Shown here one piece after another: positions 11,313 to 63,982 of a stretch of DNA of 64,000 nt. The stretch is taken from sequence record NC_047754.1; one strand, given 5' to 3'. This DNA is from Escherichia phage phiAPCEc03. Under the pieces are notes generated by a model. The model had not been told where the DNA came from. It ran no database searches and saw nothing but the letters and a program-made list of their open reading frames with translations. A program made the position numbers and the translations under genes. Numbering within the stretch: position 1 is the first letter of the stretch; each line of letters opens with the position of its first letter.

Positions 11313-12707
11313 ATGTCTTTACAACTATTACGTAATACTCGAATCTTCGTGTCTACGGTTAAGACCGGTCACAATAAGACCAACACGCAAGAGATTCTAG
11401 TTCAGGATGATATTTCTTGGGGTCAGGACAGTAACTCAACAGATATTACTGTTAATGAAGCTGGTCCGCGTCCAACTCGTGGTTCTAAACGTTTTAATGA
11501 CTCTTTAAACGCAGCTGAGTGGAGTTTCTCTACTTATATCCTGCCGTATAAAGATAAAAATACTAACAAACAAATTGTTCCTGACTATATGTTATGGCAT
11601 GCACTTTCTAGTGGTAAAGCCCTTAACCTGGAAGGTGATACAGGGGCACACAATAACGAAGCTAACTTTATGGTTAACTTCAAAGATAACTCCTATCATG
11701 AGTTAGCAATGTTACATATTTATATTCTGACTGATAAAGCATGGAGTTATATCGATTCCTGTCAGATTAATCAGGCAGAAGTTAACGTTGATATCGAAGA
11801 TATTGGCCGTGTAACTTGGTCTGGTAATGGTAATCAGCTTATTCCTCTGGATAAGCAACCATTTGACCCAGATAAATTAGGTATTGATGATGAAACTTAT
11901 ATGACTATCCAGAGTTCTTATATTAAGAACAAACTTACTATCCTGAAAATTAAGGATATGGATTCTGGTAAAGCATATGATATTCCTATTACTGGTGGTA
12001 CTTTCACTATTAATAACAACATCACGTACCTAACCCCGAATATTATGTCCCGTGTAAATATTCCGATCGGTTCATTTACTGGTGCATTTGAACTAACTGG
12101 TTCATTAACTGCTTATCTGAATGATAAATTTCTTGGTTCTATGGAGCTGTACAAAGATCTTATCAAAACTCTGAAGGTAGTTAACCGCTTCGAAATTGCT
12201 CTAGTACTTGGTGGTGAATACAAGGAAGAACGTCCTGCGGCTATTCTGGTAGCTAAACAAGCACACGTTAATATTCCTACTATTGAAACTGATGATGTAC
12301 TTGGTACTTCAGTAGAGTTTAAAGCTATTCCATCTGATCTGGATGCTGGTGATGAAGGTTACTTAGGCTTCTCTAGTAAATATACCAAAACAACTATTAA
12401 TAACTTGATTGTTAATGGTGATGGTGCTACTAATGCTGTAACCGCAATTACTGTTAAATCTGCTGGTGATGCTACTACAGTAAACAACTCGGCTACTCTT
12501 CAAATGAGTGTTGAAGTTACTCCTTCTCCCGCAAAGAATAAGGAAGTTACTTGGGCTATCACTGCCGGTGATGCAGCTACTATCAGTGCAACCGGACTGT
12601 TGACAGCAGATGCTAGTAAAACTGGTGCAGTTACTGTGAAAGCTACTGCTAAAGATGGTTCTGGAGTTAAAGGTACTAAACAGATTACTGTAACAGCAGG
12701 TGGCTAA
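11313..12707 (+). CDS. major tail tube protein with C-terminal Ig-like domain (T5 pb6-like)
   Basis: 464 aa (same as T5 pb6); C-terminal ~90 aa Ig-like (Big_2-type) segment VTAITVKSAGDATTVNNSATLQMSVEVTPSPAKNKEVTWAI...; high-expression codon usage. Confidence 0.8.
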   Translation: MSLQLLRNTRIFVSTVKTGHNKTNTQEILVQDDISWGQDSNSTDITVNEAGPRPTRGSKRFNDSLNAAEWSFSTYILPYKDKNTNKQIVPDYMLWHALSSGKALNLEGDTGAHNNEANFMVNFKDNSYHELAMLHIYILTDKAWSYIDSCQINQAEVNVDIEDIGRVTWSGNGNQLIPLDKQPFDPDKLGIDDETYMTIQSSYIKNKLTILKIKDMDSGKAYDIPITGGTFTINNNITYLTPNIMSRVNIPIGSFTGAFELTGSLTAYLNDKFLGSMELYKDLIKTLKVVNRFEIALVLGGEYKEERPAAILVAKQAHVNIPTIETDDVLGTSVEFKAIPSDLDAGDEGYLGFSSKYTKTTINNLIVNGDGATNAVTAITVKSAGDATTVNNSATLQMSVEVTPSPAKNKEVTWAITAGDAATISATGLLTADASKTGAVTVKATAKDGSGVKGTKQITVTAGG

Positions 12708-12711
12708 TTAA

Positions 12712-13611
12712 ATGTACTACTCTCTAATGAGAGAGTCAAAAGTTATAGTTGAGTATGATGGTAGGGCATTTCATTTTGATGCCCTATCAAACTATGATAT
12801 ACAGACTTCCTACGAGGAATTCAAGACTCTTCGTAGGACTGTTCATCGTAGAACTAACTATGCAGACTCTATTATAAATGCTCAAACTCCCTCTTCTATC
12901 TCTCTAGCAGTAAATTTCAGCAATACTCTTACTGAGGCTAACTTCTTTGAATGGTTAGGTTTTGATAGAAAAGGTAATACTTTCTTACTCCCACTATATA
13001 GTAATAATATTGAACCTATTATGTTCAATATCTATATAGTAAACAAAGATAATAACTGTGTATATTTTGAAAACTGCTATGTATCTACAGTAGATTTTTC
13101 TTTAGATAAGAATATACCAATTCTTAATGTTGGTATTGAGTCTGGGAAATTCTCAGAAGTATCTACCTATAGAGAAGCCGCTTCTATTATACAGGGTGAA
13201 GTAATGTCTTACAGCCCAGTAATAGCTTCTACTAATGGCAGCATCTTACCCGGTCTTATTTCTGCCTCTTTATCTTTCCAACAGCAGTGCTCCTGGAGAG
13301 AGGATAAGAGTGTTTTTGATATAAATAAAATTTATAATAATAAAAGAGCCTATGTAACTGAAATGAATGCTTCGGCAACCCTTTCTCTGTATTACTTAAA
13401 ACGTTTTGCAGGAGATATGGTTTATAATATAGAACCGGAGATAGATGTACCTTTAACGATAAGAAATAATAATATTTCTATAGATTTTCCTTCAGCACGT
13501 ATTACAAAACGCCTAGATTTCTCAGATGTGTATAGAGTTGAGTGGGATATTATACCTACTGCCTCCTCAGACCCAGTGAGAATAGATTTCTTTGGAGAAA
13601 TTAAAAAATGA
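12712..13611 (+). CDS. tail collar/minor tail protein (T5 p140-like)
   Basis: 299 aa; position between tail tube and chaperone genes. Confidence 0.45.
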   Translation: MYYSLMRESKVIVEYDGRAFHFDALSNYDIQTSYEEFKTLRRTVHRRTNYADSIINAQTPSSISLAVNFSNTLTEANFFEWLGFDRKGNTFLLPLYSNNIEPIMFNIYIVNKDNNCVYFENCYVSTVDFSLDKNIPILNVGIESGKFSEVSTYREAASIIQGEVMSYSPVIASTNGSILPGLISASLSFQQQCSWREDKSVFDINKIYNNKRAYVTEMNASATLSLYYLKRFAGDMVYNIEPEIDVPLTIRNNNISIDFPSARITKRLDFSDVYRVEWDIIPTASSDPVRIDFFGEIKK

Positions 13612-34486: not shown

Positions 34487-34763
34487 ATTTTATTTCCTCT
34501 TTAAAGATTAATTTCGATTTGTTAATTGCGATTAGTGGGTTAGTGTCGATTACTAAACGTGGTATCCATACTGGAACATATTGTATGTCCAAACTAGGAT
34601 CGTTTGTAAACTTGTATTCGGCATAATTTCGTAGACTTAAAATTCCTAGATATTCTGCCAGTTGTCTATTAGACAATTTATTTGGATTATCAACTATTGT
34701 TGATTCGTTCAAAATGAATGAGGAACCGACCAATAATTGGTGAGCATCAGGCTCTGTAAGCAT
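34479..34763 (-). CDS. hypothetical protein
   Basis: 94 aa ORF downstream of tandem early promoters. Confidence 0.4.
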   Translation of the reverse strand: MLTEPDAHQLLVGSSFILNESTIVDNPNKLSNRQLAEYLGILSLRNYAEYKFTNDPSLDIQYVPVWIPRLVIDTNPLIAINKSKLIFKEEIKYG

Positions 34764-34870
34764 TCTTTTGAATAGCTTAATAATTAGGTCGGAATTTCCT
34801 CTAGCTAGTAAGTATAGCTTTTCATAATCGAAGAATTTAATTTTTGTTTTCTCCTCGAATTTATGTATAT

Positions 34871-34900
34871 ATTATACTAGATTTCGAGAGAATTTAGCAA
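34871..34900 (-). promoter_or_regulatory. sigma70 promoter (-35 TTGCTA, 18 nt, -10 TATAAT)
   Basis: Minus strand TTGCTA-aattctctcgaaatctag-TATAAT-ATATACATAAATTCGAGGAG. Confidence 0.55.
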
Positions 34901-34971
34901 CTAAAAGTTTTATTTTTCTGCTTCGGACTTTCTTATCAACCCGAAACTTTCTCTCTCAAATTTATGTATAT

Positions 34972-35000
34972 ATTATACATCATTTATGAGCTGTTGCCAA
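34972..35000 (-). promoter_or_regulatory. sigma70 promoter (-35 TTGGCA, 17 nt, -10 TATAAT), tandem with previous
   Basis: Minus strand TTGGCA-acagctcataaatgatg-TATAAT-ATATACATAAATTTGAGAG; -35 lies in 3' end of helicase gene. Confidence 0.5.
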
Positions 35001-36336
35001 ATGCAATTTTAGCTAATTGAACTGCTTTCTCCGGAGTCATAGTAATAGTTTTCCACCCGTTGTTACGATATACTGTCATACGTCCAGAAGCCTGTCTTAG
35101 CCCAGTGCCACCTTTCATAATTAGATCTACAACGATTGGGTCGAGTTTACCCTCGACAATACGTTGAACACGGCCTGCAAGCTGTTCAATTAGAGATTCA
35201 TTATTAATGAGGCTTCCCATTATTAAACAAGACAGCTCGTTAAGTGAAATACCTTCAGAGAAGATGCTTTGAGCTGCTGCAAGCACACACGGCCCGCCTT
35301 TTGCTATATCTTCCTGAATTTTTAATCGGTCATCTAAGTGGGTTGCTCCTATAATTTCATAGGTTGTAACACCACGCTGTGTAAGAGCTTCTAGTATTGT
35401 TTGTATTAACTCTGTTCTATCACTTACAATGAGTACTTTATGTCCCATATTCGCATATAAATGTGCTAGGTTTATAATAGTCTCTCGGTATTCAGGATGG
35501 TTATACACATCGTTAGCACGTAATGCCCACGGTACGTTTTGGTTTCCTGATAGCTCAACAGGCACGGAATACCTATGTATTGTAGGAGCAACAGTATTAT
35601 TAACCGGCGGGCTAAATATCTTATATCCAAAGAAATCTTTGAACATAAATTGTAAACCATCTTTTCGTTTTAATGTACCGGATAGTCCAATTTTATAGCG
35701 AGCACATGATATTTCTAGGAAATTAGTGAAAGTTGTAGCTACACAATGGTGAACTTCATCAACTATAACAGTACCGAATACTTTAGAAAGATTATTCGCA
35801 TGTTTATTCACTGTTTGAATATTACTGACTACAATTGGTGGATCAATATTGTATTTCCCAGAACCTATAATGCCCGGTTCAAACCCAAACCATTTACGAA
35901 CTTCTGCCGCCCACATTTCACGAATGGATGTATTCGTACAGATTACCAAAGTTTTCTGGCCAAATTTATATGCAAGTGCAAGGGCTAGGATAGTTTTACC
36001 AAACCCAGGCTTACCATTAATAATACAGGTATCATCGCACTCTTCATATATTGGAAGCTGATCTTCTTCACGCAGTTTAAACGACGGTTTTGGTATATCT
36101 ACCGGAGCTAATGTGCGTTTATCAACTAATTCGTATTTTATTCCTTTAGCATCTAGTAAGTCCAGACGCGTAATAGGAATCCACTTAATCTCTTTGGCAA
36201 CAACACCACTATTCTTATACATAATAGGGTATTTACTAGTCATTGTCTCTATGTGATAAGTGGTTTGCTTACTACAATAGTCCCAAAGTTCATCATCGGG
36301 CTTGAAATAGGCTTTATTAGATATAACAACCTTCAT
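34984..36336 (-). CDS. SF2 DEAH-type DNA helicase (T5 D10-like)
   Basis: 450 aa; Walker A GKPGFGKT, Walker B VIVDEVHH. Confidence 0.8.
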   Translation of the reverse strand: MKVVISNKAYFKPDDELWDYCSKQTTYHIETMTSKYPIMYKNSGVVAKEIKWIPITRLDLLDAKGIKYELVDKRTLAPVDIPKPSFKLREEDQLPIYEECDDTCIINGKPGFGKTILALALAYKFGQKTLVICTNTSIREMWAAEVRKWFGFEPGIIGSGKYNIDPPIVVSNIQTVNKHANNLSKVFGTVIVDEVHHCVATTFTNFLEISCARYKIGLSGTLKRKDGLQFMFKDFFGYKIFSPPVNNTVAPTIHRYSVPVELSGNQNVPWALRANDVYNHPEYRETIINLAHLYANMGHKVLIVSDRTELIQTILEALTQRGVTTYEIIGATHLDDRLKIQEDIAKGGPCVLAAAQSIFSEGISLNELSCLIMGSLINNESLIEQLAGRVQRIVEGKLDPIVVDLIMKGGTGLRQASGRMTVYRNNGWKTITMTPEKAVQLAKIAFGNSS

Positions 36337-47454: not shown

Positions 47455-47796
47455 TTACGATTCCTTGAGCAAAGAAGAAAGTTCAGCATATACTTTATCT
47501 AACTCAAACCCTATGCGAAGAGATACGTTAGTCCTCCGTTGTTTAAGTAACCACTCGGATATGTTAGGGATGCCAGCTAATCTATGTGGTACCACCCTAC
47601 ATAGCTTTTCCGAAGTATCATAAACAGGAACTTTACGTTCTTTTACTGGAAACTTCCTTGTTTCCCATTTTTTATTCTTCACTGTCATATCTCTCCGAGG
47701 GATTAAATTCACCAAACAGCTCTTTAACTCCCCTAAGGTATAGCTGATGGGCTTCTTCCGGGGTATCTCGTCTACCAAAAATATGTTGCTTTCCAT
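47455..47796 (-). CDS. hypothetical protein (true start possibly internal Met near 47690)
   Basis: 113 aa ORF overlapping 3' end of upstream HNH gene by 125 nt; basic. Confidence 0.3.
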   Translation of the reverse strand: MESNIFLVDEIPRKKPISYTLGELKSCLVNLIPRRDMTVKNKKWETRKFPVKERKVPVYDTSEKLCRVVPHRLAGIPNISEWLLKQRRTNVSLRIGFELDKVYAELSSLLKES

Positions 47797-48202
47797 CGCA
47801 GTAAGCGTAGGCCATATACCTATTACCTCGTTTTACAACTCCAGTGAATCCGGTAGAATTAGTAGAACACTTCTTATTCTTTCCATTTTCGGAATAGGTA
47901 GCCTTACGTAAATTATCCCACAAGTTGTTTAAACTATCACCGTCTTTATGGTCAATAGTTTTATCTCCAGGATCTTCACCTGTCTTTATAAACCAGATTA
48001 TTCTATGGGCTAAGTAAGCTGTCCGCTCCCCATTTATCATAAACTCTAGCTGTCTCCCAGTTTTCATTTTGGAGCCCGCTACTTTTCCCTTCCTTGGGCC
48101 AGATAACCAAATTAAGTCCCCAGTACTTTCGTCATATCTAAGCTTTTCTAGGATAAATGCCATAGGAGGCATTGGTTTATGCATCTTCATTAGTTGCTCC
48201 AA
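47672..48202 (-). CDS. HNH-AP2 homing endonuclease
   Basis: 176 aa; HNH core IDHKDGDSLNNLWDNLRKATYSENGKN, AP2-like TGFTGVVKRGNRYMAYAYCDGKQHIFGRRDTPEEAHQLY. Confidence 0.75.
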   Translation of the reverse strand: MEQLMKMHKPMPPMAFILEKLRYDESTGDLIWLSGPRKGKVAGSKMKTGRQLEFMINGERTAYLAHRIIWFIKTGEDPGDKTIDHKDGDSLNNLWDNLRKATYSENGKNKKCSTNSTGFTGVVKRGNRYMAYAYCDGKQHIFGRRDTPEEAHQLYLRGVKELFGEFNPSERYDSEE

Positions 48203-50963
48203 GTTCGGACAGTACTTCTTCTGCCATAGCCTTCTCTTCCTCTGTCATGAATTTGAAAGGAATTGGCATACACTCGATTTTACAATAGGTTCTGTACCAG
48301 TCTACGATATTTTCAGTGTTCATATCCTTACCAATACCCATCATACCAAGATACATTCTAGCATATTTTGGGTTAGCACTCTGACCTGTTTTAAGGAAGA
48401 AATCTTTCTTCTTACCTTTCAGAGCTTCTATGAATGGTTTGATAGTAACATTTGAACACTTCTTAATATCTTCCCAGAACATCTCGTGCATCTTATGGAA
48501 GAATGCAGCTCGATCATTAGGTTTATCTTTGATATATTGTTCAACATGCTCAACTGTTACATCTTTAATAGACTCAAGATGATAGTAGCGAACAAGAAGT
48601 AGTTTAGCTTCGTACGCATCTGCATGGCGTGGAGCACAATAATCAGGAGTTGAATATAAAATAGCTTTGATTCGCTCTTCCGTATACTCTTTTCCTGCAC
48701 CTTCGATAGTTCCCCAGCTTTCACTGAAAATATCAATAGTTGCACCCTGATCAAGCAAGTAATAACGTAAAGTACTAGTATAGTTCCTAGACTCCAGCTC
48801 CCTACGACGTGCGTATAATTGCTGTGCTAACTCCAGCCAACCTTCATCAATGTTATATTGTTCAGAACCTGCGGAGAATCCACTCGTAGATTTATCAATG
48901 AAATAATAAATGTTCTGAGCGCCACGGTCGCGCCTGATTGCTTGGAAACGCATGTTTGGCGCTTGGTTACTAGTTCTAGTAATAACGAATACGTTATCAA
49001 AGTAGTTAAAGTCAACTCCACTCGTTACGGATGGACTACATAATAAGCAATCAATTTGTTGATCAATTAGCTCATTAGTTGTGTAATCCAGAATACGTCT
49101 AATATCCACATCAGACGTAGAGTTTGAGTGGATTTCCTTAACTAACGCACCCGTATTACGACGCAACGCCATGCCCTTCTCATTCAGTTCATCTGGTCCA
49201 CAGTCAGATACTAGGATAGATTTCTCACCCATCTCTAGAGATGTCTGAAGTGCAACCCAAATACTGGATTCATCAGGAAACTCATAAGCATGAGCTTTTG
49301 ACAGCATTCTACGGTGATGATTATAAAATGCAACCGGTTTATCAAACTCAATCAAGGAACCATATGCTTCAATTGTTTCTGCACTAATATCACCATCAGA
49401 TAATATAATGATTTTTGCAGTTGCAAGAATGTCCCGAAGAACCTGAATACATTCACGACGTTGTTTAACAACCGGGGCGAATAATAGGTCATTCATTACA
49501 GCGTCACATTCATCGATAAAGATTGCATCAATTTGACCAATAAAACTCTTGAACTTATGCAAAGAGTGAATAGTTGTGGACATACGGTCAATAGCACCAC
49601 GCTTAAAATTGAGCATATCTACAGACTTATCATATTGTCCTGCACTAAATTTCTTGGCATTTGAAGATACCAGTGCTCTAGTATTGGTAATTGCTAAGAA
49701 ATTACCTTTAATAACTCCTGAGTCTAACCAACGCACAACCGCCGTGGTTTTACCTGTACCTAGACTTGCTTTTACAAAAGTCATATAACCTTCTGGTGGC
49801 ACAGTATTTAATTTCAAGAAGTTATCAGTTTCTAGAGAATTAGTTTCTAGCTTTTTAAGTGGAATACCTTTTAAAACATCTGGTATATCACGTTTAGAAT
49901 TATTAACAAACGCTTTCAGAGCCTGCTTACGACCGTTGTTAAAATAATCTTGAATATTACGACTATTATCTTTAGTTGCAATATACTCAGATAAAGCTGG
50001 GCGGATCTCCTTCTCTAGCCAACCAAAATCTACACCATCCTCTAGTGCTCGGTGATAGAGTTTAGGAATAATACGTAGATATACACCATCCTCAGCTTCT
50101 TCTAACTCGCTGATGGTTTCTTCTACTTTATCAGAGGCAGCCTTTTTACCTTTAATTTGATCGAGTAAGGAGTAGAACTCCTCTTTAAACTCTCCTCTAG
50201 TTGTTTCATAGTCAACTAGATTATTGGGTAAATTTACTTTTGAGCCTTTAACAAATACCAGACGTGAAGCACCCTCCGCTTTAAACGGATCTACTATACC
50301 ATCAGTAAATAAAGGATCTGCAAAGTAATGGAGCTGTACGGAAGAGTAATAAGCTAAGTCGGCAATATCAAAGCCATACTTTTGTCTACTACTTTCGTTG
50401 ATAGATGTAAATAAGAACTTGATTTGACCCTGAGTTACTTTAACATTAGATTCTAGTATTAAGTGCATTCGGATACCTGGTTTTAGCCCAGCCGAAGACG
50501 ATGCATGAGCAATAAACCCTGCATCAAGAGGAAACATGTCCTCACTAATACTATTTAACATTCTAATAATATGTCGAGCCATGCCAACAAGATCAAACTT
50601 GTTACAACCACCTGTATCTACAATACCATCCACGTCCATTGCAATTATATGACTTGGGTTAGATACATTAAAGTTGCCCTTCTTACGTCGCACATTATTT
50701 TTAGGTGCAAGACATCGACCTCGTACCGCAACGATATGAGGGTCAGACGTTAAACGTCTCATAAGAGGAAGCATTTCTACTAGGGTTTGAGGATCAACTT
50801 CATCAATTACATCAAACTTGAAGGGCATTGAAGCTGGTTTACCTTCAGGATGCTTTGAGGAAAATCTTTTAGCAAAAAGATAGTCTTCTGCTTTAACTTC
50901 TCGCCAATTGCCTGTGGCTAAATCGCGATGAAATCCTGCATGACCTTGTAGGATTGAGAACAC
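48177..50963 (-). CDS. large P-loop ATPase / helicase-like protein (possible replication-origin-binding protein)
   Basis: Walker A SLGTGKTTAV and Walker B IFIDECDAV; ORF track start (51041) is a TTG; GTG at 50963 with AGGAG SD 7 nt upstream is preferred; first ATG is further downstream. Confidence 0.6.
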   Translation of the reverse strand: MFSILQGHAGFHRDLATGNWREVKAEDYLFAKRFSSKHPEGKPASMPFKFDVIDEVDPQTLVEMLPLMRRLTSDPHIVAVRGRCLAPKNNVRRKKGNFNVSNPSHIIAMDVDGIVDTGGCNKFDLVGMARHIIRMLNSISEDMFPLDAGFIAHASSSAGLKPGIRMHLILESNVKVTQGQIKFLFTSINESSRQKYGFDIADLAYYSSVQLHYFADPLFTDGIVDPFKAEGASRLVFVKGSKVNLPNNLVDYETTRGEFKEEFYSLLDQIKGKKAASDKVEETISELEEAEDGVYLRIIPKLYHRALEDGVDFGWLEKEIRPALSEYIATKDNSRNIQDYFNNGRKQALKAFVNNSKRDIPDVLKGIPLKKLETNSLETDNFLKLNTVPPEGYMTFVKASLGTGKTTAVVRWLDSGVIKGNFLAITNTRALVSSNAKKFSAGQYDKSVDMLNFKRGAIDRMSTTIHSLHKFKSFIGQIDAIFIDECDAVMNDLLFAPVVKQRRECIQVLRDILATAKIIILSDGDISAETIEAYGSLIEFDKPVAFYNHHRRMLSKAHAYEFPDESSIWVALQTSLEMGEKSILVSDCGPDELNEKGMALRRNTGALVKEIHSNSTSDVDIRRILDYTTNELIDQQIDCLLCSPSVTSGVDFNYFDNVFVITRTSNQAPNMRFQAIRRDRGAQNIYYFIDKSTSGFSAGSEQYNIDEGWLELAQQLYARRRELESRNYTSTLRYYLLDQGATIDIFSESWGTIEGAGKEYTEERIKAILYSTPDYCAPRHADAYEAKLLLVRYYHLESIKDVTVEHVEQYIKDKPNDRAAFFHKMHEMFWEDIKKCSNVTIKPFIEALKGKKKDFFLKTGQSANPKYARMYLGMMGIGKDMNTENIVDWYRTYCKIECMPIPFKFMTEEEKAMAEEVLSELGATNEDA

Positions 50964-51462
50964 AACAATACTCCTGTGTTGGAAATGAAATAAGTTTTCT
51001 TTAGGACTATTCAGAAAGAATAGAACAACTGTTACTGTCAATTTCTCAACAAATTAATTGCAAATACTGAAGTGGGGTGGCAACTTCCACTTTCACGCTG
51101 CGCTGCTGCTTTGCTATACCGCACAAATCCTTGAGGATGGCCGCTAAGCCAGATTTGCTCACCTAATGCTTCATATACTAGCTCATACTAGATGCAATAT
51201 AACTTACAGAATCACGTCTCGGAGTTTTTCACTCCTCCCGTCTCACTTCACAACCACCTCTGTCTAGGTTGCTTCGAGGCCTTACCAGGGTTCCTACGGG
51301 ACGCAGATCGCTAAGTATTCTATTAACTATTTGTTTAAAAACTAACACGTAACAGTTAAAACAACCCTTAATGGGGCAGCCTAACTGTTCCGTATCGCGG
51401 ATTGTAAACAAGAAAAATTAGCAAAATCAATTTTTACTAATGTCTCTCAATTCAATATAAAT

Positions 51463-51491
51463 ATTATATCAAGATTTTGGGCATCCTGCAA
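51463..51491 (-). promoter_or_regulatory. sigma70 promoter (-35 TTGCAG, 17 nt, -10 TATAAT) firing into a ~500 nt leader
   Basis: Minus strand TTGCAG-gatgcccaaaatcttga-TATAAT-ATTTATATTGAATTGAG. Confidence 0.5.
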
Positions 51492-51582
51492 GTAAAATTT
51501 TCCGGATGGTGCTATCATTGGTCTTGAGTACGGATAAAACCGAGCCAAAATGACTCGGTAATCAGAGTTCAGCTAATAAAAA

Positions 51583-51975
51583 TCATTCATCATTTAGGCC
51601 TGGAACATAAATCCCAACACGATTTAATTGTTCTTTAGCTTCTGCGAGAATATCTGGAGTGTACTCCCAAATATCATCTTCCACCTGTAAAAGATGGGGC
51701 GAACAACCATCATCCGGCACACGACATATGGCCAAACCACGTGGATGGAATATAGAGAAGTTTAGGGCAACAATTAAACCCATAGCGGATAATTCATTCC
51801 AGTCCAATTCCCATTCCCCCGCGTAGCCGGATAGGAAAACACCAACACAGGGATCATCTATTTGCTGCTCCGGAAAAGTGAAGGAGGCTTGTCTTACCCC
51901 CAACCAACGTTGTAGCAGCTTCTCCGCACGTTTCACCAAACTAGGATCAATCTGACGCCAATATACTTGTTCCAT
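51583..51975 (-). CDS. hypothetical protein, tandem paralog B
   Basis: 130 aa; aligns with neighbour at 51985 (PCVGVFL..W.EL..MGLIVALNF..F.P......YVPGL versus PCIGLIV..WKELDEMGLVFALNYKLFMP....YMIPGL). Confidence 0.5.
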   Translation of the reverse strand: MEQVYWRQIDPSLVKRAEKLLQRWLGVRQASFTFPEQQIDDPCVGVFLSGYAGEWELDWNELSAMGLIVALNFSIFHPRGLAICRVPDDGCSPHLLQVEDDIWEYTPDILAEAKEQLNRVGIYVPGLNDE

Positions 51976-51984
51976 TATGCCCTC

Positions 51985-52413
51985 TTAAGCAGTTAAACCT
52001 GGGATCATATACCCGAAACGTCGAAGTTTCTGAATCCCCTCATCTACTTCTTCCGGTGAGTAAGACCAACCATAACGTTCATTAACCTGAAAACCAGGAG
52101 ATTCACTAGTTTTATAGTTAACAACGAGGCGATGCTTAGCAGGCATAAACAGCTTATAGTTTAACGCAAAAACTAAGCCCATTTCATCTAACTCTTTCCA
52201 GCCGACAATCTCTTCAAGACCCTCCTCTACCTGAACAATTAAACCAATACAGGGGGCCTCATCAATATCATCTTTAAAAGCAAAGGAGATTTCGTTATTC
52301 TCACACCATATTTTCAAAGAGTTAATAGCCTCATTATACAGGCTAGCTGGGAGAGTACGCCAAAAGTTAACCAAAATTGGGTTAGCTTCTTTAGAGAATA
52401 CATTATTGAACAT
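51985..52413 (-). CDS. hypothetical protein, tandem paralog A
   Basis: 142 aa; see paralog B. Confidence 0.5.
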   Translation of the reverse strand: MFNNVFSKEANPILVNFWRTLPASLYNEAINSLKIWCENNEISFAFKDDIDEAPCIGLIVQVEEGLEEIVGWKELDEMGLVFALNYKLFMPAKHRLVVNYKTSESPGFQVNERYGWSYSPEEVDEGIQKLRRFGYMIPGLTA

Positions 52414-52415
52414 AT

Positions 52416-52955
52416 TTACACCTTAAATTGTTGCAAGGATTTACACATTTCAAGATCTGGGCTAAATTCTAGCATATAGCTAACAGCTTTTAAATCTTGA
52501 AGATTTATCCCAGTCCTACCGTTGACTATAACCGTTGGATACTGATACATCATAGCACCCGCATCATCAAGCACACACCAATGTTTGAGCTTATGCTTTT
52601 CAACGAAGCGAAGAACAGAATTACCCCTAGATAATCCACCACCAGTAAAATCCGTTGTACCAAGAAAACGATCGATAAGACCTAATCCGGTCATAATCTG
52701 AACGTTCTCCATCTCATTTCTGACAGAAAACCAAGATGATACTCCGACAATCATTATCGGAGAAGGACGAATAAAGTCCTGAAAAGCCTTGAGAAGCGGT
52801 TTGAAAACCCAGTCACTTCCAAAGAAAATCTTTTCATCATCAGGTGCATGATGGTGGGAGATGCTCGAATTGAGCACCCCATCAATGTCTAGAAAAATAA
52901 TTGGAGTATTACTTATTTCCACCAGTAGCATCCCACGTCCAGACTTTAACTTCAT
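52416..52955 (-). CDS. HAD-superfamily phosphatase-like protein
   Basis: 179 aa; motif I FLDIDGVL near N-terminus; downstream VLDDAG-type acidic motif. Confidence 0.6.
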   Translation of the reverse strand: MKLKSGRGMLLVEISNTPIIFLDIDGVLNSSISHHHAPDDEKIFFGSDWVFKPLLKAFQDFIRPSPIMIVGVSSWFSVRNEMENVQIMTGLGLIDRFLGTTDFTGGGLSRGNSVLRFVEKHKLKHWCVLDDAGAMMYQYPTVIVNGRTGINLQDLKAVSYMLEFSPDLEMCKSLQQFKV

Positions 52956-53261: not shown

Positions 53262-53437
53262 ATCTGTTTCCCCTCATCTCCAGAGGATAACCATATGTTC
53301 TCTGTAGTATAGATAATTTTATATGTGTTGCCCAACCTTTCTTTAACATTAGGAAATCTATAGGCAAACCTATAACACCACGTGCCAGACTCAGTTATAA
53401 AAATATCCCATTCATTATTTCTTGCTTCCCGACACAT
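53252..53437 (-). CDS. small hypothetical protein
   Basis: 61 aa; EWDIFITESGTWCYRF motif shared with 53091..53261. Confidence 0.35.
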   Translation of the reverse strand: MCREARNNEWDIFITESGTWCYRFAYRFPNVKERLGNTYKIIYTTENIWLSSGDEGKQICP

Positions 53438-54233
53438 AAGGTCTACCCTCTAAATGAGCTTCTACACGAGCAATAAAATCAGGATCACTGAAAGCATCTA
53501 CCGCACCTTTACTCCAGTAAGGGATACCGCGTTCTTCCAGCTGGTACATCTCACTACGAGTCATACCTTGATAGCCCGGTTCCGCCGCTAGGGCACTATC
53601 ATAGTAGTTAACAACCATTAGCTTGGCAGCAGTCAAATTAAGAACAGGAAATAATTCCCAGTAGAAGTTAATTACTTGGTTAGAGCAACCAATCACAACG
53701 ATCATATCTTGACTGGTAATACCATCAAAAACATTGTACATTTCTGCGTATGCAGGAGCATGCTCTCCAAAGAAGATTACATTAGGTTTAACCCATTTAT
53801 AATCATCTGGATCAATAGAATTATATCCTACATCAATAATCCGTTTATTACTACTACTGTAGCTATCCGCTACAACAACCTCTTTTAAGTATCCATGAAT
53901 GTGCAGAATGTCACTATGTGGAACTCCAGCACGCTCAATAAGGTCATCAACGTTGGTAGTCAAGTTTACTATTTGACCGGGATATTGTTTATACCATTCG
54001 CCAATACGCAAATGCGCAAGATTGGGTTCAACAGTTTTTAGCTCTTCACGACGCTTGTTGTAAAACATATGGGTTTTATGATAAAAATTACCACGAAAGG
54101 CATGAATATTACATACTTCTTCTAGATCATAATCATCCCACAGTGCTTTACCACTAGCAGTATCAGTACGGAAGGCTCGTACACCACTTTCAACACTCAA
54201 ACCTGCACCGCTAATAATAATTAATCTACGCAT
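53415..54233 (-). CDS. Sir2-family (sirtuin-like) NAD-dependent protein, zinc-ribbon-less
   Basis: 272 aa; sirtuin signature motifs GAGLSVESGVRAFR (cf. GAGISxxSGIPxFR), TTNVDDL (cf. TQNID), HIHG catalytic His, NVIFFGE, VIGCS; no CxxC...CxxC zinc module between HG and FFGE. Confidence 0.7.
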   Translation of the reverse strand: MRRLIIISGAGLSVESGVRAFRTDTASGKALWDDYDLEEVCNIHAFRGNFYHKTHMFYNKRREELKTVEPNLAHLRIGEWYKQYPGQIVNLTTNVDDLIERAGVPHSDILHIHGYLKEVVVADSYSSSNKRIIDVGYNSIDPDDYKWVKPNVIFFGEHAPAYAEMYNVFDGITSQDMIVVIGCSNQVINFYWELFPVLNLTAAKLMVVNYYDSALAAEPGYQGMTRSEMYQLEERGIPYWSKGAVDAFSDPDFIARVEAHLEGRPYVSGSKK

Positions 54234-63893: not shown

Positions 63894-63920
63894 AATAGCC
63901 CTTCGGGGCTATTATATTTA
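63894..63920 (+). terminator. intrinsic terminator after thyA
   Basis: Hairpin AATAGCCC-TTCG-GGGCTATT followed by ATATTTAAATTT. Confidence 0.6.
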
Positions 63921-63982
63921 AATTTCATTTGCTTATTTAGTGAAATTTAAATATAATATATTTTATAAATTGGAGGTATACA

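Follow-up and report, generated by a model that had tools for sequence, protein, structure and literature searches.

A putative large structured RNA in the 5′ leader of the D2 helicase gene of T5-like phages

Host RNase III cuts double-stranded RNA in phage leaders such as the lambda N leader and in the T7 early RNAs, and processing of these sites alters the stability or the translation of the mRNA. Here, we analyze a ~490-nt leader upstream of the helicase gene D2 in Escherichia phage phiAPCEc03 (NC_047754.1), a T5-like phage of the genus Tequintavirus; the window referred to below is the whole 64-kb stretch of its DNA that was studied. T5 is a classical model phage in which replication initiation and early gene control are poorly understood, and D2 is the presumed initiator. 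As judged from comparison of related sequences, the gap in front of D2 very probably encodes a conserved structured RNA, the T5 element. Similar to the RNase III-processed sites (the lambda N leader and T7 R0.3-R1.3), the element belongs to an early transcript of the host polymerase and places long double-stranded helices upstream of a gene. However, those sites are single hairpins of ~50-100 nt, whereas the T5 element has a ~40-bp helix around a conserved, branched domain of 250 nt with an invariant loop, and its cleavage is only predicted. The translational operators of T4 gene 32 and gene 43 are also cis structures in the 5′ untranslated region (UTR) of a replication-protein mRNA that touch the ribosome binding site, but they measure tens of nucleotides compared with ~490 nt for the T5 leader.

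GOLLD, ROOL, HEARO, OLE and raiA are, like the T5 element, multi-helix RNAs of >300 nt that were defined by covariation, are phage-borne in some cases and had no known function at discovery. The T5 element differs from them in that it shows no similarity to Rfam 15, is fixed as the 5′ leader of one gene and retains far fewer invariant nucleotides. The pRNA of the phi29 family is likewise a structured phage RNA from an early promoter whose fold is kept while its sequence is nearly unrecognizable among relatives; however, it is a free-standing RNA of ~120-170 nt at the genome end that serves the packaging motor, and the T5 element has no link to packaging. Finally, ColE1 RNA II, the T4 origins ori(uvsY) and ori(34) and the T7 primary origin share with the T5 leader a strong promoter ~500 nt upstream and a structured or AT-rich transcript by replication functions, and the relatives of RNA II also fall into discrete, diverged sequence types in which the structure is kept. 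Unlike these systems, the T5 leader has no antisense RNA I-type promoter, and its predicted transcript runs into a protein gene. Among large structured leaders and noncoding RNAs (ncRNAs), the leader is unusual in its size, its ~40-bp closing helix and the extreme turnover of its sequence under a fixed architecture. We found no description of its structure in the literature, although an earlier mention in subscription journals remains possible.

Covariation and strand specificity of the leader

Positions 50964..51582 of the window (619 bp) form the exact gap between the stop codon of a DUF7415 paralog (gene 51583..51975) and the GTG codon of the helicase gene at position 50963, and the flanking genes, terminator, promoter and ribosome binding site share the minus strand. 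Read in this direction, the gap contains the terminator of the paralog gene, a promoter, the predicted transcription start at ~51456, the ~493-nt leader, a Shine-Dalgarno (SD) sequence and the GTG codon, in that order. The terminator scan gave no terminator-like site between the structured domain and D2; therefore, the RNA would form the ~493-nt 5′ leader of the D2 mRNA. The gap sequence matches 539 phage records, and the comparison set consists of ~40 related phages, with 33 distinct T5-like leaders extracted. Phages chee24 and Lindwurm are ~99% identical to the window at 50900-51650 over the full length, and T5-like relatives show ~95-96% identity in the 10-kb stretch around the gap. The center of the leader occurs in at least three sequence types, all of equal length: type A in the window phage, Lindwurm and SP3, type B in T5, BF23, EPS7 and Stitch, and type C in phiR2-01.

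Compensatory changes were counted in three alignments and compared with shuffles and slid controls. Alignment A7 contains the window phage, two other type A phages and the Pectobacterium phages DU_PP_V and My1, with 92.3% of the cells paired. Its consensus is composed of 13 helices with compensatory changes in every one, and 49 of the 102 pairs are changed on both sides, compared with 19.4±3.2 in the shuffles (reached in 0/500) and 3-10 in the slid controls. The preliminary description of this gap had proposed to look for such substitutions in relatives, and this check came out in favor of the RNA. In alignment A5 of the 33 T5-like leaders (99.5% of the cells paired), 19/74 pairs are changed on both sides, compared with 12.2±1.3 in the shuffles (0/500) and 3-4 in the slid controls. 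A covariance model, R1, was built from A7 and thus from type-A-like sequences. It has a single match in the window, which is the structured domain on the minus strand (51026..51358; 370 bits), and it finds the element in full length at the expected coordinates in T5 (E=4e-17), EPS7, TrudiGerster, phiR2-01 (E=3e-21) and Sugarlandvirus (E=2e-7). With the filters off, R1 gave hairpin noise only on the Proteus, Providencia, Vibrio and Aeromonas elements. Ten R1 matches form alignment A8, namely the window phage, DU_PP_V, My1, four type B/C phages, two Sugarlandvirus phages and one spurious fragment (L088). In A8, 88.8% of the cells are paired and 85/102 pairs are changed on both sides (shuffles 49±4, slid controls 22-26), in counts that lean towards the structure as A8 is fitted to R1. 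A covariation-supported RNA of this size (~490 nt, with a 333-nt core and 102 bp) is uncommon, and it lies in a genetically tractable phage, where the leader would offer a handle on the control of D2 expression and replication and a new family for RNA structure work.

A long closing helix is formed in types A, B and C, DU_PP_V, My1, Proteus phage Stubb and Providencia phage PR1, where it spans 318-352 nt. It comprises 24-46 bp in 10 of the 11 lineage representatives, and the Klebsiella Sugarlandvirus phages contain a comparable candidate helix. The sequences of the two arms are unrelated between lineages and complementary within each. Cognate arms pair with -29 to -43 kcal/mol, compared with a mean of -12.4 for arms swapped between lineages, and the z-values against 500 shuffled arms range from -5.9 to -8.7. 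For the window phage, the duplex energy is -32.3 kcal/mol, compared with -9.8±2.7 for shuffled arms (z = -8.4) and -18.9 for the antisense strand. Across the lineages, 63 of the 393 closing-helix pairs are G·U, and the helix is weaker on the opposite strand because it is G·U-rich; in seven of eight lineages it is far more stable on the D2-sense strand than on the antisense strand. A DNA inverted-repeat search of the whole window does not list the closing helix. The richness in G·U pairs, the stability on the sense strand only and the lack of a DNA inverted repeat therefore indicate that the constraint acts on the D2-sense strand as RNA. A structured RNA had been suspected in the preliminary description, which missed the minus strand, the ~40-bp long-range helix and the conservation across genera.

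Strand specificity also bears on a replication origin, the other reading of the gap that had been put forward. In this case, transcription from the strong promoter through the AT-rich 5′ part would open the DNA or leave an R-loop or primer, and D2 would be loaded there; the gap would thus be an origin or encode an origin-associated primer RNA. The gap adjoins the only T5 protein with origin-binding-protein similarity, and a match of its helicase core to Pfam Herpes_ori_bp has given D2 the name "replication origin binding protein". In addition, the gap is kept throughout the family, the GC content is ~31-32% over the first ~100 nt that follow the promoter, and D2 starts in mid-genome, at nucleotide 59,545 of 121,750 in T5 (48.9%). 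By biochemistry D2 is a bipolar SF2 helicase, its role in initiation has been proposed and is unproven, and the sequence position of the T5 origin has yet to be mapped (PMC3632103). Internal bidirectional T5 origins have been reported from electron microscopy (cited in PMC3632103 and PMC10055335). However, a dominant central origin is disfavored by the recombitron strand bias, which its authors take to mean that T5 replicates for the most part in one direction, starting at one end of the genome (PMC10055335). As inverted repeats in DNA, the conserved helices are weak, and they are strand-specific and rich in G·U pairs. Four lineages show no iterons or repeat arrays, and an iteron-type origin, which would take an array of three or more initiator-binding sites, was rejected since only two-copy, chance-level direct repeats occur in the window phage, T5, Stubb and PR1. 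Finally, the promoter scan gave no promoter-like site on the plus strand at 50500-52100, which leaves no ColE1 RNA I-type antisense promoter, and a ColE1 RNA II-type primer was rejected on this ground. An origin is therefore distinctly unlikely, and the conserved promoter, the lack of a conserved reading frame, the strand-specific structure and the covariation strongly favor the small RNA or long 5′ UTR among the earlier readings.

Predicted fold of the leader

The features of the leader are collected in Table 1. Lindwurm, T5 (NC_005859) and BF23 have an annotated terminator at the homologous site, and the T5 reference records, AKFV33 and S114 a promoter at the homologous place; apart from these two signals, the T5 reference records annotate nothing up to D2. 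The promoter, recognized earlier as a sigma-70 promoter and here assigned to the minus strand, lies downstream of the A/T tract AAAATTTTAC and fits the pattern that the AKFV33 record gives for T5 early promoters. In alignment A1, its -10 element is invariant and its -35 element is conserved. A generic scan for TTGACA promoters does not call it because TTGCAG agrees with TTGACA at only three of six positions. A strong promoter is found at the 5′ edge of the gap in each enterobacterial lineage examined. The local GC richness described earlier is also present, with 45-48% GC at 51100-51399 compared with ~32-41% in the flanks. All sequence features that the preliminary description had named were recovered at the positions it gave.

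Table 1. Positions of the leader features and of D2 in the window
Feature	Position	Strand	Description
Intrinsic terminator of the upstream DUF7415 gene	51534..51559	-	Stem CCGAGUCA/UGGCUCGG (51558-51551 / 51547-51540), then UUUUAU; folded
T5-type early sigma-70 promoter	51463..51491	-	-35 TTGCAG (51491-51486), 17-nt spacer, extended -10 TGaTATAATA, hexamer 51468-51463
P1, 5′-terminal hairpin	51410..51448	-	GAGAGACAUUAGUAAAA / UUUUGCUAAUUUUUCUU, 16-22 bp; minimum-energy folds
P2, hairpin	51375..51391	-	GGAACAGU-UAG-GCUGCC with AA bulge; RNAalifold helix 3; in the 100%-conserved 5′ block
Structured domain	51026..51358	-	333 nt, 13 helices, 102 bp; A7 consensus and R1
Long closing helix, 5′ arm	51314..51358	-	39 bp in all, 6 G·U; pairs with 51026-51068
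H2, 5′ strand	51301..51311	-	GCGAUCUGCGU; pairs with 51095-51103 (GCGCAGCGU); helix 3 of the A7 fold
Hairpin GGAGU-GAAAA-ACUCC	51221..51235	-	A7 helix 8; covariation of 2/5 pairs (window phage, DU_PP_V, My1)
UAGC domain	51123..51158	-	Outer helix 7-9 bp, 3′-side internal loop 8-10 nt, inner helix capped by CU-UAGC-GG (51148-51141)
H3, hairpin	51070..51092	-	AAGUGG-...GUUGCCACC...-CCACUU; A7 helix 13
Long closing helix, 3′ arm	51026..51068	-	Helices 1-2 of 13; 16 pairs with compensatory changes
3′ hairpin CUAUUC-UUUCU-GAAUAG	51007..51023	-	A5 helices 15-16; stem invariant, loop length varies
UCCU, candidate anti-SD	51006-51003	-	Directly after the 3′ hairpin
D2 translation initiation region	50961..50975	-	SD AGGAG (50975-50971), spacer, GTG (50963-50961); the Lindwurm record marks a ribosome binding site here
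D2 helicase gene (T5.108, "replication origin binding protein")	48177..50963	-	928 aa; Pfam Herpes_ori_bp PF02399 and annotations in relatives

First, an intrinsic-terminator attenuator at P1 would take a GC-rich stem directly before a U-tract and an alternative antiterminator; the stem of P1 is AT-rich, with the U-run partly inside it. P1 is annotated as a terminator in Stitch, and our terminator scan does not call it. A ~20-bp hairpin of other sequence occupies the P1 place in Klebsiella phage FZ41, My1, DU_PP_V, Stubb and PR1. The variation of P2 is confined to the triloop, and the outer G-C pair becomes A-U in FZ41. The closing helix and H2 together form a rod of ~50 bp, and five of the nine H2 pairs show independent compensatory changes, with the states UGCG/CGCA, UGUG/CACA and UACA/UGUA (alignment A5, helix 5). 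The hairpin GGAGT-ttttc-ACTCC, which had been singled out in the preliminary description, corresponds to the eighth of the 13 covariation-supported helices. Within type A, H3 shows a replacement of U-A by G-C, and GUGG/CCAC becomes GGGG/CCCC in SP3. For the 3′ hairpin, which has no covariation, the support is consistency only.

The UAGC domain carries the 8-mer CUUAGCGG, which is invariant in the 11 lineage representatives aligned over the domain and is its sole invariant stretch; within Markadamsvirinae, GGTAA is likewise invariant. The stems of the UAGC unit covary (GGCU/GGCC, AGCU/GGCU, GACU/GGUC and GCCU/GGGU). MAFFT failed on the 3′ strand of this domain, and a hand-written descriptor of the UAGC unit was used. 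The descriptor gives exactly one match per phage locus, always in the D2 leader and on the sense strand, and 0 matches in 1.55 Mb of unrelated control DNA.

The Rfam 15 covariance models gave no match at E<=1 in the window at 50000-52500, and on nine related loci they gave only two terminator-like matches below threshold (28.7 bits compared with a gathering value of 100, and 23.3 compared with 114). The scan for tRNA and tmRNA gave none at the locus. The blocks ACAGAA..GGCU and AGUCC resemble CR-I and CR-V of RNase P RNA; this identity was rejected because there is no Rfam match and the blocks are in reverse order. The candidate P4-like pairing does not survive the loop variants seen in phiR2-01 and TrudiGerster; these variants agree with the local hairpin P2 instead. 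A riboswitch was rejected as the interior is 28-64% identical even among close relatives and has few invariant nucleotides in a domain of 333 nt. Lastly, the T5 anti-retron factor Rad is a protein encoded in the tRNA region and is unrelated to the leader.

Conservation and turnover across lineages

The distance from the -10 box to the GTG codon is 501-509 nt in 30 of the 33 distinct leaders (constant within ±4 nt), and the remaining three (SP3, L019 and phiR2-01) have an insertion of ~97-100 nt after P1. Compared with T5, the identity is 100% for the first ~100 nt of the leader, 84% for the last ~50 nt and 28-64% for the central ~280 nt, as against mostly 76-98% for the neighboring genes. The 100%-conserved 5′ block corresponds to positions 51476-51376. 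Between the phage types the helix sequences are almost wholly different; the pairing, the helix lengths and the total length are kept. The center of the leader is a mosaic between phages, and the interior of type A resembles that of DU_PP_V more than the type B interior found in near-identical genomes. The three types are alleles of one fold that look unrelated, while their genomes are 85-95% identical elsewhere, an extreme turnover under structural constraint. This turnover raises the question of diversifying selection, either by phage-phage competition or by RNA-targeting host defenses. The insertion (L013 ~969-1065; L008 ~960-1055; L019) separates P1 from the conserved 5′ block and has a direct repeat, UUUUUCUU, on its two sides; its presence in both type A and type C leaders suggests a module that is optional or mobile.

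The optional insertion and the mosaic center would also suit a nonfunctional spacer or a mobile remnant, such as MITE-like repeats or a landing zone for homing endonucleases, in which structure is incidental, and homing endonuclease genes do lie just upstream in AKFV33, bobsandoy and YJin-2024a. Such an origin of the gap is very improbable. There is one copy per genome at a fixed place, the P2 block has 0 matches in 185,579 bacterial and archaeal genomes, and against a spacer stand also the constant length, the 5′ block that is more conserved than the neighboring genes and the compensatory changes in all 13 helices. A MITE or mobile element was rejected on the single copy at a fixed locus, the absence of a reported DNA inverted repeat, the weaker antisense duplex and the absence from bacterial genomes.

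It is barely credible that the gap encodes a small protein, either the 60-aa product of the ORF (open reading frame) at 51229..51411 or the 38-aa and 33-aa ORFs of some pipelines. Pharokka-style annotations call three to four tiny ORFs here in some records, whereas T5, Lindwurm, Stitch and BF23 leave the gap empty. The sole sizeable ORF, 51229..51411 on the minus strand, starts with TTG and has no SD, and its frame of 62 codons is reduced to 23 codons in types B and C. Five ORFs have no PHROG match, and a protein gene was rejected as no frame is conserved in the homologues. Similarity across the gap is found in all six frames, a signature of conservation at the nucleotide level. The preliminary description had judged the gap noncoding and had named a conserved coding frame in homologous genomes as the counter-evidence to look for; none was found, and its judgement of the TTG candidate holds. 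As a warning for annotation, the three to four tiny "hypothetical proteins" called at this place by many pipelines are artefacts.

A long gene-free gap upstream of obp/D2 is present in every Demerecviridae lineage examined, with a length of 590-1590 nt. For example, it measures 598 nt in Klebsiella phage FZ41, 590 nt in Pectobacterium phage My1, 712 nt in Vibrio phage Brizo, ~728 nt in Vibrio phage D153 and 1590 nt in Aeromonas phage TS3. The promoter, 5′ hairpin, long helix and CUUAGCGG of the T5-like phages all recur in Stubb and PR1, and TS3 carries the CUUAGCGG motif. One Vibrio locus and one Aeromonas-like locus contain long helices spanning 326 and 339 nt, which are only suggestive of the same element. 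A 17-base pattern scanned against metagenomes gave 120 loci, of which two (L122 and L181) were genuine and the others chance matches. Altogether, the element is recognized across at least four genera. Regarding single phages, UUAGCGG occurs three times in the TS3 gap (L045 19-1608), once within a perfect 11-bp hairpin, and the element may be repeated or enlarged there. In Stubb, two promoters match the sigma-70 consensus perfectly (12/12), at L076 1705-1733 on the 5′ edge of the structured RNA and at 2435-2464; the second sits 37 nt upstream of D2, and there is no terminator between the two.

Control of D2 and genes around the leader

We propose that the RNA is a structured 5′ leader of the D2 mRNA that controls the expression of D2 in cis; as the whole explanation, this is about an even call. 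The leader would act through mRNA stability and/or translation initiation. By analogy with other phage leaders, the ~50-bp rod of the closing helix and H2, together with P1 (~20 bp), would be likely substrates of host RNase III. An RNase III site takes a double-stranded RNA helix of at least ~20 bp on the transcribed strand, and the predicted, covariation-supported closing helix provides one. Processing, or the binding of a factor at the invariant hairpin, would then set the amount of D2 in early infection. The 100%-conserved 5′ block may also pair with the SD/GTG region. In the consensus fold, the SD, the spacer and the GTG codon are paired with UCCU and with the 5′ block (51406-51392; A5 helices 1-2), and such modeled pairing would account for the fact that both end blocks are more conserved than the neighboring genes. 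This pairing is not robust once coding sequence is added to the fold.

Several points weigh against control in cis or against the RNA itself. The pairs between the 5′ block and the initiation region are all invariant and thus give zero covariation, and one pair is broken in phiR2-01. When the RNA is cut in or behind the long helix, the modeled unpaired probability from the SD to the start codon shows no consistent change in eight lineages. The transcription start, the RNA ends and the processing are predicted, and we infer the function of the leader from its position alone. In Stubb, D2 can be expressed without the leader, which favors a role beyond cis control. The covariation comes from only ~8 deep lineages, and the structure under test had itself been used to fit or derive two of the alignments. 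Lastly, the single-sequence stability of the leader is unremarkable for the genome. Its folding energy has a z-value of -1.5 on the sense strand and ~0 on the antisense strand against other windows of the genome, and -2.2 against shuffles. Since the domain is not unusually stable, single-sequence folding alone would therefore not find it; the case for the RNA element is made by the comparative evidence, which lies far outside chance expectation, and not by thermodynamics.

The same long helix would allow another outcome, in which cleavage of the ~40-bp helix, by RNase III or some other nuclease, frees a ~330-nt domain as a stable ncRNA acting in trans. The freed domain could, for example, serve as scaffold or cofactor to a protein of phage or host that binds at CU-UAGC-GG, or act as a decoy against host defense, with the hypervariable helices as type-specific determinants. 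In all lineages the domain is a self-contained unit closed by the long helix with a similar span, its interior is exchanged like a cassette between distant phages, the invariant 8-nt loop motif suggests a specific ligand, and Stubb has a separate perfect D2 promoter downstream of the domain. However, in the T5-like phages neither a terminator nor a second promoter separates the domain from D2, and the position and orientation directly upstream of D2 are always kept. An excised RNA is thus possible, though rather unlikely. A more specific version is a long shot: the 333-nt domain, cut from the leader, would be a new class of large phage RNA cofactor that works with D2 or another replication protein at the start of T5 replication. 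It would serve as a primer or loading scaffold recognized via CU-UAGC-GG, and its hypervariable helices would be incompatibility determinants between co-infecting T5-like phages, by analogy with RNA I/RNA II of ColE1-type plasmids.

Regarding the genes around the leader, the upstream side is formed by the tandem DUF7415 paralogs (51985..52413 and 51583..51975, minus strand; PHROG 2502), which are mislabeled 'tail tube protein' in some GenBank records. A ~150-aa homing-endonuclease-like gene is located between the upstream paralog and the leader promoter in AKFV33 (L006 316-768), bobsandoy (L010 460-768) and YJin-2024a (L211 440-892), and the leader is intact in these three phages despite the insertion. 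Further upstream of the paralogs, the minus-strand gene 52416..52955 encodes a HAD_SAK_2 domain (PF18143), which is the HAD domain found in RNA repair proteins of the 'Swiss Army Knife' kind, and adjoins a Sir2-like gene (53415..54233). Directly downstream of D2, the minus-strand ORF 47672..48202 overlaps the D2 3′ end, and an HNH/homing endonuclease is annotated in this neighborhood in relatives. A patch inside D2 (~49700-49850, minus strand) has 58-64% nucleotide identity to T5, compared with mostly 70-100% for the rest of the gene, and represents a second variable spot near the variable leader. Elsewhere in the window, the most unusually stable predicted RNA folds after correction for composition are at 12581-12920 on the plus strand (z -3.7) and 34681-35020 on the minus strand (z -3.2). 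The inverted-repeat search of the window lists a perfect, AT-rich 18-nt inverted repeat with a 13-nt spacer at 63910-63927 / 63941-63958.

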